Shown piece after piece: positions 11,850-20,602 of a stretch of 64,000 bases of DNA. The stretch's first letter is position 1. Each line of letters begins with the position of its first letter. Position numbers and translations under genes: made by a program. The stretch covers positions 29,774 to 93,773 of the forward strand of contig JAZJZK010000022.1 of assembly GCA_040389905.1 (NCBI GenBank). The letters are read 5' to 3'. The notes under the pieces are model-generated. The model saw only the letters and a list, made by a program, of their open reading frames with translations, did no database searches and was not told where the DNA came from. Source of the stretch: Gemmatimonadota bacterium. Its GTDB lineage: Bacteria; Gemmatimonadota; Gemmatimonadetes; Gemmatimonadales; Gemmatimonadaceae.

Positions 11850-12287
11850 TCAGCGGCGCCCAAGTGACGTGGGGGTAAAAGCCTGGGGAAGAAGGTCCGA
11901 GATGGACCACTGCTGCTCCGCGCCCTTCGTCGTAATGCTGAGAACGACGAGTTGCGGCGCGAACTCGACCAGTACCTGCCGACAGATCCCGCATGGCGGA
12001 GTCGGCGATTCCGCTTCGGTGGCGATCGCGATCGCCGTGAATTCCCGCGTGCCGCGCACGATCGCCGCCGACACTGCGGCTCGCTCCGCACAGATCCCGG
12101 CAGGATACGACGCGTTCTCGACATTACAGCCAATCGAAATCGAGCCATCCAAACCCAGCACCGCCGCGCCGACACGAAAGTTCGAATACGGCGCGTAGGC
12201 GTGACGCATGGCCGCCACCGCGTGCTCTCGAAGATTGGCAAGGTCCAGCGGCGTGGACCTGGCAATTCTCACGGCGCGCGCACTCAT
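11850..12287 (-). CDS. cdd: Cytidine deaminase
   Basis: AYAPYSNFRVGAA, NVENASY, CAER and PCGICRQ motifs. Confidence 0.96.
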   Translation of the reverse strand: MSARAVRIARSTPLDLANLREHAVAAMRHAYAPYSNFRVGAAVLGLDGSISIGCNVENASYPAGICAERAAVSAAIVRGTREFTAIAIATEAESPTPPCGICRQVLVEFAPQLVVLSITTKGAEQQWSISDLLPQAFTPTSLGRR

Positions 12288-13456
12288 GCTCCGCGCTCCA
12301 GTTCAGGCAGAAAAGAGGTTCCGCGCCCGCGAAAACCGACGTGAAGCCACTCGCCGACCGTTGCCCCCAGGTCGGAGAACGTTGGGCGGACGCCCAGCGC
12401 GAGCGGCCGAACCGCTGCCCCGCAGACGAGCAAGGGCACGCGCTCGCGCGCGTGATCGCTCGAGCCCGTTGTCGGGTCGTTGCCGTGGTCCGCGGTAATG
12501 AACAGCAGATCGTCCTCTCGAAGAGCGGCGCGAATGGCCGGTAAAGCGTCATCGAACTGGCGCAGCGCGCCCTCAAAACCGGCCACGTCGCCGCGGTGAC
12601 CGTATAGCGTGTCGAAATCTACAAGGTTGGCGAACAGCAACCCACCCTGCGTGCCCGCGAGCCACTCCAGGATCGCCCGAATGCCCTCGGCGTTGTCCGC
12701 CGTGTGGCGCGCGGTCAAGGAACGTCCCGCAAACAAGTCGTCCACTTTGCCAACCCCTGCCCGGTGGACCCCTGCTCCAGCCAGCGCGTCAAGCAGCGTC
12801 TCTCCGGGTGGAGCAATGGAGAGATCGCGCCTGTTCTTGGTTCGGACGTACGTACCCTCCTCGCCGACGAATGGCCTCGCAATCACTCGAGAGACATCGT
12901 GCGGTGCAACCAACTGCGCGCGCGCGATCTCGCAGGCGCGATACAACTCGGCCAGCGGAATCACCGCCTCGTTCGCGGCCACCTGAAAGACCGAGTCCGC
13001 CGACGTATACACGATCCATTTTCCGGTCCGCGCATGCTCGGCGCCAAATCGCTCGATGATCTCCGTCCCACTGGCGGCCACGTTCCCGAGGACGCCCCGC
13101 CCCGTTTCTCTCTCGAAGGCCTCGAGTACCTCAGAGGGGAACCCATTGGGGTACGTCGGAAAGGGTTTCGCGAGATGGAGTCCTGCAATCTCCCAGTGGC
13201 CGGTTGTGCTGTCCTTTCCCGCCGACGCCGGATTCATCATTCCCCACGCGCCCGCCGGAGCTACCGCCGGTTCCACCCCTTCAAGTGGCGCGATGTTCCC
13301 GAGGCCGATCGCCTGAAGATTCGGCAGAAGCAACCCGCCCCGCACACGGGCGATATTCCCGAGGGTATCACTGCCGACATCGCCATAGGCCGCCGCGTCG
13401 TCCGCTGCCCCGATCCCGACGCCATCCAGCACCAGGATGACTGCGCGATTCCTCAT
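12284..13456 (-). CDS. deoB: Phosphopentomutase
   Basis: VLDGVGIG, GKDSTTGHWE, YTSADSVFQ, NLVDFDTLYGHR and TADHGNDPT motifs. Confidence 0.96.
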   Translation of the reverse strand: MRNRAVILVLDGVGIGAADDAAAYGDVGSDTLGNIARVRGGLLLPNLQAIGLGNIAPLEGVEPAVAPAGAWGMMNPASAGKDSTTGHWEIAGLHLAKPFPTYPNGFPSEVLEAFERETGRGVLGNVAASGTEIIERFGAEHARTGKWIVYTSADSVFQVAANEAVIPLAELYRACEIARAQLVAPHDVSRVIARPFVGEEGTYVRTKNRRDLSIAPPGETLLDALAGAGVHRAGVGKVDDLFAGRSLTARHTADNAEGIRAILEWLAGTQGGLLFANLVDFDTLYGHRGDVAGFEGALRQFDDALPAIRAALREDDLLFITADHGNDPTTGSSDHARERVPLLVCGAAVRPLALGVRPTFSDLGATVGEWLHVGFRGRGTSFLPELERGA

Positions 13457-14535
13457 GCCGGTAACTCCGGGGCTTCCTGGCCGACGTACCGGCGGGGCAA
13501 ACGAAGGCGAAGCCCTGTGAGGACTTCGTAGGCGGACACGTCGCTTCGCTGGGCGAGTTCGCTCACGGTGATGACGTCGCCCCCGTCGCGGCCGAGCAGC
13601 GTGACAAGATCGCCTAATTCGGCTTCCACATCAGTCACGTCCAGCATCGTCATGTCCATGGTCACTCGGCCCGCCACGGGAATGCGCTGTCCCCGTAACA
13701 GCACCTCGCCCCCGTTGCTGAGCGATCGGCGATATCCGTCGGCATACCCCACCGGCACCGTGGCGATCCTCCGAGCGCCCGCGGCACGCCACGTCGCATC
13801 GTAGCCCACCGATTCCCCGTCGTTTACGGTGCGCATCTCGACGATTCGCGCTCGCATGCTGGCGACTGGCTCGGGGACAAGCGCGCCTCCCTCGATGGAC
13901 GATACGCCATAGAGAAAGATGCCGGGGCGGCACAGGGTCCATGGCGACGGTGCACGCATCTCAATTGCCGCGCTGTTTTCGACGTGGACGACTGGCGGAC
14001 GCTCGGGGAGTTGGGCCAGCGCCTCCGCGAACCGTCGCTCCTGCACCGCTCGGCTGTCGTCGGTGAGTTCAGCGGAGTGGAAATGGGTGAACACGCCTGC
14101 CGGCGCCGAACGCTCGAACAGCAATCTATTTTCCAGAACTTGCGTCCAGAGCATGCCCGCCCGAGACATTCCGGTGTCGATCTGGAGTTGCCAGGGTCGC
14201 CCCGTCCTCGCCCACGATTCGATGACGGCAGGATCGCCAAGGGCTGGCGTCAGGTCGGCGCGCCGCAGCGCGTCGATTTCGTTGCGGAGAATCGGGGTGA
14301 ACACGACAATCGGCCGGCCGATGCCACCGCGGCGTAGATCCTCGCCCTCGGCCACCGTCGCGACGCCAAATCCCCACGGATCGAGCGCATCGAGTGCCAA
14401 GGCGGCGCGAAGCCCTCCGAGGCCGTAGCCGTCCGCCATGACCATCGGCAAGATCGGCGCGCCCGCCAGGGCACCGATGGCGGCGCCGTTGCGGCACAAA
14501 GCGCCCAAGTCAACCTCGACCCAGGCGCGTGTCAT
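13453..14535 (-). CDS. alr: Alanine racemase homologue with the PLP-binding Lys replaced by Met (M33)
   Basis: IDTGMSR, RPGIFLYG, VGY, GYADG and GRVTMD are present. The xVKAxxYG motif reads MVMADGYG (codon ATG at 14437-14439). Confidence 0.88.
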   Translation of the reverse strand: MTRAWVEVDLGALCRNGAAIGALAGAPILPMVMADGYGLGGLRAALALDALDPWGFGVATVAEGEDLRRGGIGRPIVVFTPILRNEIDALRRADLTPALGDPAVIESWARTGRPWQLQIDTGMSRAGMLWTQVLENRLLFERSAPAGVFTHFHSAELTDDSRAVQERRFAEALAQLPERPPVVHVENSAAIEMRAPSPWTLCRPGIFLYGVSSIEGGALVPEPVASMRARIVEMRTVNDGESVGYDATWRAAGARRIATVPVGYADGYRRSLSNGGEVLLRGQRIPVAGRVTMDMTMLDVTDVEAELGDLVTLLGRDGGDVITVSELAQRSDVSAYEVLTGLRLRLPRRYVGQEAPELPA

Positions 14536-14540
14536 CTGAC

Positions 14541-14606
14541 GGCGCGAGTAGCTATCATGTGGAGACTAAAGAAGATAGGAGCACCGCCAGGTCGGTGCAA
14601 CCGAGG
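14541..14606 (+). repeat. Left copy of a decayed direct repeat flanking the racemase/epimerase cassette
   Basis: Ungapped manual alignment to 18320-18385 gives 45/66 identities, including exact GCTATCATGTG and TGCAACCGA at the same 45-nt offset. Confidence 0.65.
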
Positions 14607-14649
14607 TGGTGGGCGTTCTTCGACGCCGACGATGGGCAAAATGGTTGCC

Positions 14650-15747
14650 TCAGTGCACGAGCGCGCAGCCGTGGCCGAGGAGTCCGTCAGGGATCGATAT
14701 CGTCGGCCCTTCATAGACCATTCCACCGGCAATCGGCCCCGGGCGCATGAAGAACGGCGTGTCGAGATCTACATACCGAATCGTCTCGGGATAACGCATG
14801 GCAAGAGCTGCCGAGACCGTCATGCTCAGCCGTGTCTCTACCATGCCACCGATCATGCAGACCATACCACGATCAGCCGCTCGCTCGATTGCCACCACTG
14901 TGGGCCCCAGACCCATCTTCATGGTCTTGAAGTTCACGGACCGCAGTGACGGAAACTGACAGATCGCGTCGAGGTCCTCCACCGACTTCAGGGATTCGTC
15001 GAGGCAGATCAGCACGTCAGTGGACTCCTGAAGCGTGGCCAGGTCTCTCAGCGACTCACGCGACAGCGGCTGCTCGAGCAGGGGAATCGCAATGCCAGCG
15101 GATGCCAGCGACGCCAACAACTCGCGCGCCGTCGCCAAATCGTACGCGCAATTAGCGTCCAACACGATCTCGAGTGAGGGAAACGCGCCGTGAATGCTGA
15201 CCAGAAGGTCGACGTCCTCGCGAAGTGCTCGGCCGCCGATCTTCACTTTCAATGTCGTGAAACCCTTCGAGACGACGTCCGCCACGAAGCCGAGCGCCTG
15301 ATCGACCGGCCCGACGGGCAGGGTGATGTCACTCGTTATCGTGCGGCACTGCGGTGGCATCCAGTCGAGCACGGACATGCCCTGTGAGCGCAACCGGGCA
15401 TCGAGGACGGCCAGCTCCAATCCGCACTGCGCCGCCGGCGCATGCGGAAATGCGCCCAGCACGCGAGTGCTTTCGACGTAATTCAAGCGCTCCGCGGGCG
15501 TGAGCGTCGCCGTCGTGCGCTCGAATTCGCGGAGTATTTCGATCGTCGAATCGACGGTTTCACCTGAGACGGCGGGAAAGGGTGCGCTTTCGCCGATGCC
15601 GACGGTGCCATCACTCAATGTCGCAGTGGTGATGACGGCGAGCGCCGTGGCCATGCCGCCACCGGCGATGGCAAATGGCATGATCAGATCGTGCTCGATG
15701 ATCTCGAACGCTACCGCGGAAAGGCCAAGCTCCTCAGTCGATGACAC
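14650..15747 (-). CDS. Dipeptide epimerase (L-Ala-D/L-Glu epimerase family, enolase superfamily)
   Basis: GIGESAP, KVKIG, metal ligands in DAN/EQP/DES, NFKTMKMG, GGMVET and DLD motifs. Confidence 0.88.
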   Translation of the reverse strand: MSSTEELGLSAVAFEIIEHDLIMPFAIAGGGMATALAVITTATLSDGTVGIGESAPFPAVSGETVDSTIEILREFERTTATLTPAERLNYVESTRVLGAFPHAPAAQCGLELAVLDARLRSQGMSVLDWMPPQCRTITSDITLPVGPVDQALGFVADVVSKGFTTLKVKIGGRALREDVDLLVSIHGAFPSLEIVLDANCAYDLATARELLASLASAGIAIPLLEQPLSRESLRDLATLQESTDVLICLDESLKSVEDLDAICQFPSLRSVNFKTMKMGLGPTVVAIERAADRGMVCMIGGMVETRLSMTVSAALAMRYPETIRYVDLDTPFFMRPGPIAGGMVYEGPTISIPDGLLGHGCALVH

Positions 15748-15750
15748 AGT

Positions 15751-18249
15751 TCAATGTCTCACGAAAATGCGTTGAACCCGGGGACCGAGCCGGGAGATGA
15801 CTTCGTACGGAATGGTCTGCATCGCCTCTGCCACGTGTTCGATGGACTGCGACGACCGGCCGCGCGCGCCGAAGACGAGGACATCATATCCCACCTCGGC
15901 CTCAGGACACTCGCTGAGGTCGATGACCATCGAATCCATCGAGATTCTGCCGACCACGGCACATCGTCGCCCATTGATGACGACCGAGCCATGTGCGGCG
16001 AAGGAACGAAAAACACCGTCGTAATACCCGAGCTGCACGACGCCCACCGTGAGCTCCCGATCCGCCTGGAAGGTTCCTCCGTAGCCCACGCGGTCTCCTG
16101 GCCGTAGGACGCGCCGGTCGATGAGCCGGCTCACGAGTGTCAGCGACGGAACCAATGGGACCGCGCGACAATCTAGCGAGGGAGCGATGCCGAGCAGCGC
16201 CAGGCCGACGCGCACCATTTCCATGGCGTGCCCGGGAAACCGAATGATGCCCGCACTTGCCAGCGCGTGGCGAGGCGGGATCGTTGCGCCGGCTGCCTCG
16301 GCGGCGCTGATCGTCTGGTCGAACAGTGCGAGTTGGCCTCGCGTGAAGTCGTCCATCGATTGCTCATCCGCACTTGCGAGGTGCGTCATGATTCCGGCAA
16401 CCGGAACATTGGCGCGTTGGAGCGCAAGAAGCGCGGACGGCGTGATGTCGGGTGCGAGTCCCGTACGATGCATTCCCGTGTCGACCTCGAGATGCACATT
16501 CGCAACTCGGTCTGGAGACGCGAGAACCGCGCGTAGTAATTCCTCGCTGTGCACACAGGGCGTCAGGTGTGCGATACGCGCCTTGTCGAGTTCGTCCGGC
16601 GTGGCCAACAACACGAGGATCGGACGAGAAACGCCCGACCGTCGAAGGGCGACGCCCTCATCTGTATGCGACACGGCGAACTGGTCGACACCAGCGGCGG
16701 CGAGATGGCGCGCGAGCTCGGTTGCGTCTGCGCCGTACGCGCTCGCCTTTACCACGGCCATGATCTGCGCGCCCGGACAGCGGTGTCGCACCATCGCGAG
16801 GTTGATCTCGATAGCGCCGACGTCGATGTAGAGCCTCGTCGGCGCCATCGCTTCGAACAGTTCCTTCGCGATGCCATCGATCATCTGGCCTCGCCCCGTA
16901 AAGAGCGCGACGACATCTCCAGCGCGCACCTCTCCGATGAGCGCGGCCCCAAGCGCACCCGCGTCGTGGAAGACGTGAAGCTCGGCCGCGGACTTCGAGT
17001 CGGCCATGATGTCGGCCGCCCGTCCTGCCGTCATGTAGATCGACGCCGTCTGCTGCGCGACAAGGTCTCGCAGCGTGAGGAGCGTATTCTCCGACAACGC
17101 GTGTACCGCCTCGTTGAGCACGAGGTAGATTCGGCCATTCCCTCCGGCCGTTGCCACCGCATCCGCGATCGCGACGCGCCACGCCATCGCATCGTCCACG
17201 ACCGCGCAACGCAGGAAGTGCACGCCCTTCGGCGATTTCCACGTCTGCAGGTCGAGCGACGTCGGGCTGTAGGATTGTGAGCGGGGAGCGTGCGCGAGAA
17301 TCGTCGCGGCCGCCGCGGCAAGGGCGACATCGTCGGCCAACCACGATGAGGAGGTGGCCACTTCGATCCGGGATGTGGTCGCGTCAGGGGAGCGAACGAG
17401 CACACTCATGATGTCGGAGCCAATCCGCTCGATTCGCTCGACGGGCCACCGGGCGGTGCGTGGTTGCTCCAGAGACGTCCCCGTCGGCAGGAAACGCGCG
17501 AGGTTCGTGGCGGGGTCACCGCAGACCACTTTCCCGTTCGGCGGTAGGTGACGCGCGAGTTCGGAGAGTTCCGCGGCGTACCGCTCCATGCTGCCGAAGC
17601 GGTGCTGAAATCGGCTTCCGACGTTCGTCACGACGAGGCTCGTCGGGCGCACCATATCCGCATGCCGCGCCATTTCCCCCATTTCCGTCGCGGCAATCTC
17701 GATGACGGCATAATCCGCCTCGGGAGGACACGAGAGCAGCGACAGGGGAACACCAATCTGACTGTTGAAGCTACCCGGGCTGCCGTAGCAAAAGCCCGAT
17801 TCACCGAGGAACGACACGAGTGCGTCCTTCGTACTCGTCTTGCCGACGGAGCCGGCCACGGCGATGACCTCGCAGCGGAGTTGCAGCCGGTACCAGCGGG
17901 CGAGGTCTTGCAGGGCGGTCAACGAGTTGTCGACGCGCACGAGAGCGCGTCCATCCGCATTGCCCGACCACGTTTGCTCGACGATCGCGCAACTTGCTCC
18001 GCGATCGAGCGCATCTAAAACCCATTGATGGCCGTCGCGCTTGCCATGCAGCGCGAAGAAGATGGTGCCTCGCTCCACGAGACTCGAGTGAATGGCAACG
18101 CGACGCGGGCCGAGGTCGACGTCCGCGTCGATGTCGCTCGCTGCGACAATGTCTCCGTGCACAACCGTCGCCAAGTCGCGCAGCGTCAACCGAATCGCAG
18201 ACGCCGCATCCGCCTGACGAATTCCCGTTCTCACGTTGTCCGCGCGCAT
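15751..18249 (-). CDS. MurF-like Mur-ligase / alanine racemase fusion protein
   Basis: N-terminal part has FFAL.GK.DGH, GSVGKTSTK and SFNSQIGVPLSL. The C-terminal part (~15751-16850) has AVVKASAYG, VDTGMHR, VGYG, GYYDG, GRISMD and TIPYE. Confidence 0.9.
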   Translation of the reverse strand: MRADNVRTGIRQADAASAIRLTLRDLATVVHGDIVAASDIDADVDLGPRRVAIHSSLVERGTIFFALHGKRDGHQWVLDALDRGASCAIVEQTWSGNADGRALVRVDNSLTALQDLARWYRLQLRCEVIAVAGSVGKTSTKDALVSFLGESGFCYGSPGSFNSQIGVPLSLLSCPPEADYAVIEIAATEMGEMARHADMVRPTSLVVTNVGSRFQHRFGSMERYAAELSELARHLPPNGKVVCGDPATNLARFLPTGTSLEQPRTARWPVERIERIGSDIMSVLVRSPDATTSRIEVATSSSWLADDVALAAAAATILAHAPRSQSYSPTSLDLQTWKSPKGVHFLRCAVVDDAMAWRVAIADAVATAGGNGRIYLVLNEAVHALSENTLLTLRDLVAQQTASIYMTAGRAADIMADSKSAAELHVFHDAGALGAALIGEVRAGDVVALFTGRGQMIDGIAKELFEAMAPTRLYIDVGAIEINLAMVRHRCPGAQIMAVVKASAYGADATELARHLAAAGVDQFAVSHTDEGVALRRSGVSRPILVLLATPDELDKARIAHLTPCVHSEELLRAVLASPDRVANVHLEVDTGMHRTGLAPDITPSALLALQRANVPVAGIMTHLASADEQSMDDFTRGQLALFDQTISAAEAAGATIPPRHALASAGIIRFPGHAMEMVRVGLALLGIAPSLDCRAVPLVPSLTLVSRLIDRRVLRPGDRVGYGGTFQADRELTVGVVQLGYYDGVFRSFAAHGSVVINGRRCAVVGRISMDSMVIDLSECPEAEVGYDVLVFGARGRSSQSIEHVAEAMQTIPYEVISRLGPRVQRIFVRH

Positions 18250-18319
18250 CGCGAATTCATCGACTGGGCGGCGGCCGACGCCGCAGCGTTCCGGCGCCTC
18301 ACGCGCAATGTTCCTTGGC

Positions 18320-18385
18320 GGCGCAACTCGCTATCATGTGCACACGCAACAGCATACGAGGCTACCGAGAGCGATGCAACCGAAG
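18320..18385 (+). repeat. Right copy of the decayed direct repeat; covers the mazG upstream region and start codon
   Basis: See 14541-14606; contains a TATCAT -10-like hexamer (18332-18337) and ATG 18374. Confidence 0.65.
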
Positions 18386-19141
18386 CCGGGACTGGCGGAT
18401 ACGCTGGCACTAATGAAGGATCTTCGCCTGCGCTGCGAGTGGGATGCGGCGCAGACGCACGAGTCGCTGCGCCCGTATCTGATTGAGGAGGCGTATGAGG
18501 TCGACGATGCCATCCGCTCGGGTGACGACCGCTTGCTCCGCGAAGAGTTGGGGGACCTGCTCCTTCAGGTGCTGTTCCACAGCGTCGTCGCGGAGGAGCG
18601 TGGTGCGTTTGATTTCGCGGACGTCGCAGAGGGGTTCCTCGCCAAGATGAAGTCACGTCACCCGCACCTGTACGAGGGTGGCGAGCGCCAGAGCTGGGAA
18701 GGCATGAAGGCGAAGAAACGGGACAGCATCGTCGACGGCCTGCCTGCGGAACTCCCTGCCTTGCATCGTGCGTTCCGTCTTCAGGATCGGGCGGCGGGCG
18801 TCGGCTTCGACTGGCCTGATGCGGTAGGGCCCGCCGCGAAAGTGGAGGAAGAGCTCGCTGAAGTCCGTGCCGAGGTGGACCGTGGGGCGAAAGCCTCTGG
18901 CAATGGGGTGCCGGACCCGCTGCTCGAGGACGAACTCGGCGATCTCCTCTTTTCCGTGGTCAACCTGTGCCGGAAGCTCGGTGTGCACCCGTCACTGGCG
19001 CTGGATAAGGCGAATGTGAAGTTTGCTACGCGATTTCAGGGGATCGAAGCGCTCGCCAAATCAAGGGGAATTGATGTGAAGACGGCCGGCCTCGACGTCC
19101 TCGACACGCTCTGGGACGAGGTAAAAAAGTCGCCGCTTTAG
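18374..19141 (+). CDS. mazG: Nucleoside triphosphate pyrophosphohydrolase MazG
   Basis: CEWDAAQTHESL.PY.IEEAYE, EELGDLLLQV, RHPH, GFDW, ELGDLLF and KFATRF motifs; start placed at ATG 18374. Confidence 0.95.
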   Translation: MQPKPGLADTLALMKDLRLRCEWDAAQTHESLRPYLIEEAYEVDDAIRSGDDRLLREELGDLLLQVLFHSVVAEERGAFDFADVAEGFLAKMKSRHPHLYEGGERQSWEGMKAKKRDSIVDGLPAELPALHRAFRLQDRAAGVGFDWPDAVGPAAKVEEELAEVRAEVDRGAKASGNGVPDPLLEDELGDLLFSVVNLCRKLGVHPSLALDKANVKFATRFQGIEALAKSRGIDVKTAGLDVLDTLWDEVKKSPL

Positions 19142-19247
19142 GAGCGGATTGAACGAATACACCGGAAACTACCGGATCAAAAACAGCCAACACATTCAAA
19201 TTGAGTGATCTGGCTGTTTCCGGTGCATCCGTTCAATCCGTTCCTAA
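19138..19247. repeat. 32-bp-arm inverted repeat between convergent mazG and asnS (family B, CGGAT/ATCCG units)
   Basis: 19138-19169 matches the reverse complement of 19216-19247 at 29/32 positions. Confidence 0.8.
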
Positions 19248-19297
19248 ATCCGTTGCGAATGTGAGCGGTGATTGAGCTGACGCCGGTCGAGGCAAGT

Positions 19298-20602
19298 CTA
19301 CGGCCGCAGCCGATGCATCATCCTCGGAAATGCGATCACTTCCCGGATATGCTGCAGTCCACAGATCCACGCGACCGTCCGCTCCAATCCGAGCCCGAAT
19401 CCGGCATGCGTGAACGTCCCGTAGCGCCGAAGGTCCAGATACCAGTTGTACGCTTCCATCGGTAGCCCTTCGTGCTGGATCCGCGCCACGAGCTTGTCGT
19501 AGTCATCCTCGCGCTGTGACCCGCCGATGATCTCTCCGTACCCTTCTGGCGCCAGGCAGTCATTGCAGAGGACAGTGCGCGGGTCGTCCGGGTTTTCCTT
19601 CATGTAGAAGGCCTTGGCCTCCTTCGGGTAATTCATCACGAACACCGGGCGATCATACTCCGCGACGATCAGCGCCTCGTCCTCTGCGCCGAGGTCCTCG
19701 CCCCATTGTGTCGTGCTGCCCTTTGACTGGATGAGCGCTACGGCATCGGTGTAATCCAGGCGAACGAAGGGCGCCATTACGGTCTCGAGCTTTGTAACGT
19801 CGCGCTCCAATTCCTTGAGTTCGACCTGCCGGCGTTCGAGGACGCGTTGGACCAGGTACGAAACGAAATCCTCCTGGAGCCGCATGTTCGCCGCCGAGTC
19901 GTTCCATGCGACTTCCGGCTCGATCATCCAGAATTCGGTGAGGTGCCGCCGCGTCTTGGATTTCTCCGCGCGAAATGTCGGGCCGAAGGTGTAGATCTTT
20001 CCGAATGCCGCCGCCGCGGCCTCGCCATAGAGCTGGCCGGTTTGTGCCAGGTAGGCATTGCCTTCGTCGAAGTACTCGGTCGCGAACAGGCCGGAACGCT
20101 CGCCGATGGCCGCCGTCAGGATCGGCGTATCGACCCTCAGGAATCCGCGCTCGTAAAAGAAGTCATGAATTGCTTGCTCGATTTCGTTACGAATCACGGC
20201 AATCGCCCGCTGACGCGGTGAGCGCAGCCAGAAGTGACGATTGTCGAGGAGGAAGTCGATGCCGTGCTCCTTCGGTTGAATCGGGTAATCCACCGGGCTC
20301 ACGCCAATGATCTCGAGGTCCGTCACGCCAATCTCGAAGCCACCGGGCGCACGGGGCTCCGCGCGAGCCTCACCGGTGATCGCGACCGATGTCTCCGTCG
20401 TCAGCTGTGCGAAGCGCTCCCAGACCTCGATGGGTAGCTGGTTCTTCACGAACACGGTCTGGCAGACCCCTGTTCCGTCGCGGAGGACGGCAAACGCGAT
20501 CTTCCCTGAGGAACGGACGTGCGTGACCCAGGCACGAACGGTCACGGTGGTTCCAGCGTGCGCAGCAAGCTCGGAGATACGGAGAAACGGAGCGGAGGAC
20601 AT
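19298..20602 (-). CDS. asnS: Asparagine--tRNA ligase
   Basis: OB-fold N-terminus, YLAQTGQLY, FGPTFRAEKSKTRRHLTEFWMIEPE, GEIIGGSQRE and GFGLGLER motifs. Confidence 0.96.
   Translation of the reverse strand: MSSAPFLRISELAAHAGTTVTVRAWVTHVRSSGKIAFAVLRDGTGVCQTVFVKNQLPIEVWERFAQLTTETSVAITGEARAEPRAPGGFEIGVTDLEIIGVSPVDYPIQPKEHGIDFLLDNRHFWLRSPRQRAIAVIRNEIEQAIHDFFYERGFLRVDTPILTAAIGERSGLFATEYFDEGNAYLAQTGQLYGEAAAAAFGKIYTFGPTFRAEKSKTRRHLTEFWMIEPEVAWNDSAANMRLQEDFVSYLVQRVLERRQVELKELERDVTKLETVMAPFVRLDYTDAVALIQSKGSTTQWGEDLGAEDEALIVAEYDRPVFVMNYPKEAKAFYMKENPDDPRTVLCNDCLAPEGYGEIIGGSQREDDYDKLVARIQHEGLPMEAYNWYLDLRRYGTFTHAGFGLGLERTVAWICGLQHIREVIAFPRMMHRLRP

Follow-up and report, generated by a model that had tools for sequence, protein, structure and literature searches.

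A MurF'-Alr fusion and a coupled dipeptide epimerase inserted beside a mutated native alanine racemase in a Gemmatimonadota bacterium

An acquired MurF'-Alr fusion, coupled to an epimerase, has been inserted in a duplicated alr/mazG promoter in a Gemmatimonadota bacterium of the family Gemmatimonadaceae. This fusion has probably taken over from the native racemase, which carries the change K33M, as the source of D-alanine for ordinary peptidoglycan. This is the account that we hold to be probable; the evidence for it comes from the insertion site, the residues of the three enzymes, and the fate of alr in other genomes with the same type of fusion. The window referred to below is the whole stretch of DNA analysed, 64,000 nucleotides of contig JAZJZK010000022.1 (assembly GCA_040389905.1).

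Gene order and insertion site

The order deoB-alr-mazG is common to the host and to Gemmatimonas genomes, with protein identities of 60-70%. In the host, the genes alr and mazG are separated by an insertion of 3.7 kb with a MurF'-Alr fusion and an enolase-family dipeptide epimerase, the two genes lying 3 nt apart (Table 1). An initial annotation of the DNA had described this pair between alr and mazG, with both catalytic residues in the Alr half of the fusion, a stand-alone Alr without its lysine and a decayed direct repeat around the cassette; each of these points is confirmed, the coordinates included. Its three-gene system becomes a two-gene unit, as the stand-alone alr belongs to the host itself. 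The whole assembly (5.08 Mb, 84.6% complete) was examined and contains two Alr genes, both inside the window. An inverted repeat whose 43-nt arms are 86% complementary lies between mazG and asnS (window 19137-19248) and is likely dispersed, since several further contigs of the run match 19206-19255.

Table 1. Features of the alr-mazG region (positions in the window)
Feature	Position	Strand	Remarks
deoB	12284-13456		start overlapped by alr stop
Native alanine racemase alr, 360 aa, full length	13453..14535	-	catalytic Lys33 to Met, codon 14437-14439
Left copy of alr/mazG intergenic region	14536..14604	+	decayed mazG start (GTG for ATG)
Enolase-superfamily dipeptide epimerase, 365 aa	14650..15747	-	catalytic residues present; Gly30 at Arg24 position
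MurF'-Alr fusion, whole gene	15751-18249	-
Alr half of fusion, about residues 466-832	15751..16854	-	K501, R595, H623, R680, Y723, Y815 present
MurF' half of fusion, about residues 1-465	16855..18249	-	P-loop K137 and E184 kept
Right copy of alr/mazG intergenic region	18315..18383	+	continues into true mazG start
mazG, native flank	18374..19141	+

In congeners, alr and mazG point away from each other, with 59 nt between them. A comparison of mazG-alr synteny in relatives, proposed in the initial annotation, found the site empty and Lys33 present in 30/30 congeners examined, which are those of 54 genomes whose returned loci had a complete alr start. Seven genomes of the same order have both the synteny and the alr lysine. 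The fusion is carried by none of the 54 other congeners searched and by none of 400 genomes drawn from the family.

The bracketing repeat consists of two copies of the 59-nt alr/mazG intergenic region, each with the first codons of mazG (38/59 and 11/15 letters identical between the copies). It was judged by a matrix scan; a random-pair control contained genomic repeats (maximum 378). Applied to the whole genome (5.08 Mb), the matrix, built from the intergenic regions of the 30 congeners, picks out exactly the two copies, with scores of 56.5 and 37.7 bits, and the next match scores 6.1. The repeat is not among the 20 largest repeat families listed in a repeat search. In the left copy the mazG ATG is missing, and in the right copy the similarity ends at the alr start, so that the fusion occupies the position of alr in congeners; relative to the fusion, the right copy is placed upstream and faces it as the region faces alr in those genomes. 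The insertion splits a duplicated alr/mazG promoter. The fusion would be driven by the alr side of that promoter, with the unit transcribed leftwards from the right copy. In a simple consensus scan for promoters, the only site seen was a rightward one in the left copy, and leftward sites were absent from both copies. A duplication that reaches into the 5' end of alr was considered and rejected, since 21% of random controls score equally well.

The nearest homologues of the insert are 61-65% identical. Its GC, GC3 and tetranucleotides are host-like, and a composition anomaly, looked for in these three measures, was not found. Carriage on a plasmid was also rejected, the best full-length matches reaching just 27% identity.

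The native alanine racemase

Active canonical Alr has two catalytic bases, one of them the PLP-binding Lys39 (PMC8142540, PMC11467907). Its equivalent is absent from the host's native enzyme, where the motif reads MVMADGYG with Met33 encoded by ATG; Y245 is retained. The codon is AAG (Lys33) in 30/30 congener alr genes, or 29/29 with the unpublished G012 left out. As Lys39 is a catalytic base, Met33 should abolish the activity of the native Alr. The change is known from one population only.

Apart from this codon the gene is well conserved. Against 28 relatives, mean dN is 0.18 and mean dS 1.25, similar to the values for neighbour genes. Three private changes occur at otherwise invariant columns (0-4 in relatives), and the terminal branch is the second longest of 29. 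No relaxed selection was seen in dN/dS or in private changes compared with relatives, and no decay besides K33M, so the native alr may have been a working enzyme until very recently; replacement here would have been caught late and incomplete. Inactivation looks recent, and later than the gain of the unit. The diverged promoter copies, the host-like composition and the purifying selection on native alr suggest that both racemases were present side by side over a long period and that K33M is recent. The likely reason why the dead gene keeps its full length is the coupling of deoB to its stop codon.

A second alr may exist in the host genome, since the assembly is incomplete and the whole canonical ddl region is missing from it. 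Loss of ddl by the host was rejected as an assembly gap, as the genes on either side of it are absent as well; host contigs C2 and C58 carry three ddl-like genes that score below cut-off.

The MurF'-Alr fusion

The Alr half of the fusion has both catalytic residues, in the motifs VVKASAYG (K501) and VGYGG (Y723). Equivalents of K39, R136, H166, R219 and Y265 are present in 20/20 rows of its clade, and Asn203 is replaced by Ala in 18/20. Tyr354, a position tied to alanine preference in PMC13726279, is kept as Y815. An AlphaFold model of the fusion (pLDDT 79) folds onto solved Alr with a TM to target of 0.8-0.9. With its racemase residues intact, the protein is likely to be an alanine racemase, a prediction from sequence. 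A MurF-like N-terminal region and an Alr domain in one ORF constitute the type 3 Alr architecture. By this architecture the fusion can be classed as a type 3 Alr outside the NF008897 equivalog, whose NCBIfam curated cut-off it misses (477 of 804 bits). Assignment as a VanT serine racemase was rejected (266 of 460 bits; Mur-like N-terminus, Y815); according to PMC13726279, VanT has a membrane domain at its N-terminus and carries Asn in place of Tyr354.

The MurF' half has a different record of conservation. Alignment of 151 fusion rows, in which 3 of the 21 rows of the host fusion's clade duplicate others, places F214, L228, D333 and C348 at the positions of MurF His188, Lys202, Arg316 and Asp331. 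Residue 188 was read off an alignment to 1GG4; 316 and 331 were placed via the motifs of the host MurF. We take His188, Arg316 and Asp331 to be ligase residues. Their equivalents occur in 97, 96 and 94 of 97 other fusions and in 13, 29 and 29 of 33 sister-clade rows, and in 1, 0 and 0 of the 21 rows of the host's clade. The P-loop lysine and the equivalent of the Mg-binding Glu158 are kept in 21/21 clade rows and are near-invariant across the 151. Lys202 of MurF is usually carbamylated; its loss is not diagnostic, since the canonical MurF of the host (C19:25082-26680, in the dcw cluster) has Glu there. This MurF is encoded by a separate, non-chimeric gene and retains the ligase residues.

Across the whole clade, then, the MurF' half is likely a pseudo-ligase that retains the ATP P-loop. 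It is predicted to act as a non-ligating, nucleotide-binding module that would support or tune the racemase. The initial annotation had suggested that the cassette makes or recycles a non-standard peptidoglycan peptide. New peptidoglycan chemistry is not supported by the sequences, because the MurF' half of the fusion seems to have lost ligase function and MurF and MurI are both still present in the host. A loss of murI in the host was considered and rejected, MurI being present.

The epimerase

The epimerase has K167/K169, D197/E225/D250, K274 and D327/D329, which correspond to the KxK motif and second lysine, the metal ligands and the DxD motif. Arg24 in the capping loop binds the substrate carboxylate (bioRxiv 10.1101/2022.05.01.490185). 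This position is Gly30 in the host enzyme, with no Arg there across the clade. With Arg24 missing, the enzyme is probably not an L-Ala-D/L-Glu epimerase, the label that it had been given, and it stays below the NCBIfam cut-offs for that activity (134 of 500 and 69 of 343). Small or hydrophobic Ala-X dipeptides are its predicted substrates, with inversion at the C-terminal residue, and it most likely would salvage D-Ala-containing dipeptides. A second, distant enolase-family epimerase-like gene of the host (C7:43900-44874, 25% identity) has Arg in the capping loop.

About 22 close homologues make up the epimerase clade, which is found in 0/400 genomes of the phylum at E 1e-60. Fusion and epimerase genes overlap by TGATG in 5/5 other loci with both genes (L051, L124, L125, L126 and L127). 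Five further pairs were matched solely by the equal size of their contigs. Tree distances of the two proteins agree (Mantel r 0.88 for 9 pairs, of which 5/9 are size-matched and kin are not independent). Co-occurrence elsewhere, which the initial annotation had named as a check, is thus found, and the congruent trees and TGATG coupling indicate that the epimerase travels with the fusion. It is absent from L052 and the genome of that locus, and from 14 kb around the clade gene of G546. The epimerase is dispensable and accessory, and is not required for replacement. The sister group of the epimerase clade has support 0.999; two of its members, L054 and L069, adjoin MurF'-Alr and a tandem Ddl (D-Ala-D-Ala ligase), so the association with D-alanine metabolism predates the clade.

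The neighbourhoods of the actinobacterial sister clade (L054-L111) have features of their own. MurF'-Alr is found <10 kb from an 800-aa tandem D-Ala-D-Ala ligase in 26/32 loci, many of them from Dactylosporangium and not independent. Several loci also hold an aminotransferase and an Lrp/AsnC regulator. A gene pair, MurD and a MurL-like epimerase that stays below cut-off (E 8e-98), adjoins MurF'-Alr at L063:11833-14554, L080:14718-17307 and L058:11966-14567; in L063 and L080 the pair also adjoins the tandem Ddl, and the genes form a compact D-amino-acid supply cluster.

Origin of the clade and loss of native alr in other carriers

In a tree of Alr halves, the clade of the host fusion contains Ilumatobacteraceae and metagenome sequences (support 100/98), with actinobacterial fusions as sister. 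The fusion's Alr half is distant from native Alr (100/100), a separation that rests on branch support. A tree of the MurF' halves is in agreement, and in it a Gemmatimonas sequence, L053, joins the clade; the size of the clade is a lower bound. Judged by these trees the fusion is foreign to the host and horizontally acquired, and the absence of the fusion from congeners and family genomes bears out the same claim of the initial annotation.

The clade is rare in its carrier groups too (3/301 genomes). Five genomes with a clade gene were found (the host, G071, G072, G073 and G546), all carriers being incomplete MAGs, and none has an intact canonical alr. In G073, a Gemmatimonas with the clade fusion, a single contig has deoB and mazG separated by 520 nt, and no trace of alr is left there. 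The 520 nt at the usual Gemmatimonas place of alr (L181:5338-5857) are unrelated sequence. The G073 fusion ends at a contig end, 71 residues into the Alr half; the composition of its contig correlates with that of the deoB/mazG contig (r 0.93), and its neighbours have Gemmatimonas homologues. As a control, alr lies between deoB and mazG in 24/30 Gemmatimonas loci, and the other 6 show one flank. In the Ilumatobacteraceae G072 and G546, nnr abuts tsaE, alr is gone, and the clade gene has the sole Alr C-terminal domain; tsaE is downstream of alr in 19 of the best-scoring 20 Ilumatobacteraceae alr loci. In G071, of the same family, the fusion is the sole Alr and the native locus is unassembled. 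G546 has two tsaE copies and is a possible mixed bin, and the deletions in G072 and G546 may be one event. The clade gene of G546 (L182:6680-7810) is a stand-alone Alr that has no MurF' half and shares 63% identity with the fusion's Alr half.

An Alr C-terminal domain is found in 81/87 Gemmatimonas and 80/81 Ilumatobacteraceae genomes. Five other Gemmatimonas genomes have no Alr; among the 4 checked, 3 have deoB at a contig end and 1 is without deoB. A long open frame in G774 proved to be the native alr, next to deoB. In the sister clade, a second Alr is retained in 4/5 genomes. Since native alr is deleted from an otherwise intact locus in G072, G073 and G546, replacement appears recurrent, and these parallel deletions agree with the takeover of racemase function that the initial annotation had proposed.

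Alternative explanations

The same function could have had another history, with the unit recombined recently from a congener that already held it at this promoter, so that the copies differ by lineage and not by long decay in place. The identity of the copies (38/59) is within the between-congener range of 34-59, median 46, and such a donor would also yield host-like composition and account for an undecayed native alr. However, no such donor is found among 54 congeners, and the mazG start of the left copy and the alr-side bases of the right copy are both decayed, as expected of copies ageing in place; we consider this history unlikely. It is quite improbable that the fusion is a passenger or catabolic extra, with D-alanine coming by another route or from a second alr missing from the assembly, and with K33M transient in one population. 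The incomplete assembly, the otherwise conserved native alr and the single sample would fit, but congeners hold essentially one alr, at this locus, and native alr is lost outright in three other carriers. That K33M or the insertion is an artefact of assembly or binning is hardly credible. Two overlapping Logan contigs (depth about 13) have zero differing letters and no joint over 12500-19500, and the duplication brackets the insert exactly, although both assemblies may share the same reads and so are not independent samples.

More far-reaching readings concern the MurF' half. A unit that builds or recycles a non-standard peptidoglycan stem, with a Mur half that joins on some atypical D,D- or L,D-dipeptide from racemase and epimerase, would be in keeping with the tandem Ddl beside sister-clade fusions (26/32 loci), with the MurL-like/MurD pair in 3 and with the P-loop and Glu158 kept in 21/21 clade rows. 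This is very unlikely given that the His188, Arg316 and Asp331 equivalents are missing in 20, 21 and 21 of 21 clade rows, that no Ddl lies beside clade members in the long loci L051, L052 and L126, that the host keeps MurI and its own MurF with the ligase residues, and that Tyr354, the position tied to alanine preference, is kept. A bolder extension of the replacement account, which is speculative and doubtful, makes the clade a mobile D-alanine module. The MurF' half would be a pure sensor, binding ATP or UDP-MurNAc-peptide without ligation and tying racemase output to wall demand; the epimerase would recycle D-Ala dipeptides; and the regulatory edge would lead to repeated eviction of an essential native alr in two phyla, with the host an intermediate state. 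Replacement of the native racemase by the fusion, for ordinary peptidoglycan, is the reading preferred here.

Comparison with known systems

A literature search, mostly of sources other than subscription papers and bioRxiv supplements, found no description of a fusion-epimerase pair or of the displacement. To that extent the arrangement is undescribed, as the initial annotation had thought; the fusion architecture itself has been characterised in PMC13726279. The host has a new form of type 3 Alr, accompanied by an accessory epimerase, that probably takes the place of native alr.

According to PMC13726279, the MurF'-Alr of Phocaeicola dorei racemises Ala and is the only Alr of its genome, and MurF' alters Km and kcat. 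The supplements give 0-3 Gemmatimonadota and 11-53 Actinomycetota matches per query, and a text search of the three did not return 'epimerase'. The host fusion is like this type 3 protein (PRK11930/NF008897) in its MurF-like and Alr halves, both catalytic residues, Tyr354 and a separate canonical murF, and it is likely the only working Alr. Unlike the type 3 fusions of Bacteroidota, it belongs to a separate clade allied to Actinomycetota, without the His188, Arg316 and Asp331 equivalents that the Bacteroidota type keeps; unlike the P. dorei enzyme, it is coupled to an epimerase and inserted beside the resident alr, not fused to it. The ligase function of MurF' and the reason for fusion to Alr are unanswered in PMC13726279. 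With the ligase residues lost and the nucleotide site invariant, the host's clade is a natural experiment in which ligand control of the racemase is cleanly testable.

The epimerase is like the L-Ala-D/L-Glu epimerases YkfB/YcjG (PDB 1JPM; PMC5808125) in its two catalytic lysines, three metal ligands and DxD amino-group motif. It differs in having Gly for Arg24 and no adjoining murein endopeptidase. Its best solved relatives are the dipeptide epimerases 3IK4, 3U9I and 3S5S (E 7e-82 to 4e-72), with the same Arg-less capping loop, although the host enzyme is in a separate clade at about the 40%-identity tier. Epimerases of that type are said, by Lukk et al. in 2012, to prefer aromatic or hydrophobic dipeptides.

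In xenologous gene displacement in situ, a foreign homologue assumes an essential function at the locus of the resident gene. The host has a foreign racemase at the resident alr locus, and with empty sites in congeners, both genes adjacent here and completed cases elsewhere, the locus is a snapshot of essential-gene replacement. It differs from the usual displacement in that the resident alr is still present, one base from the codon of congeners, and in that the incomer brings an extra domain and a partner.
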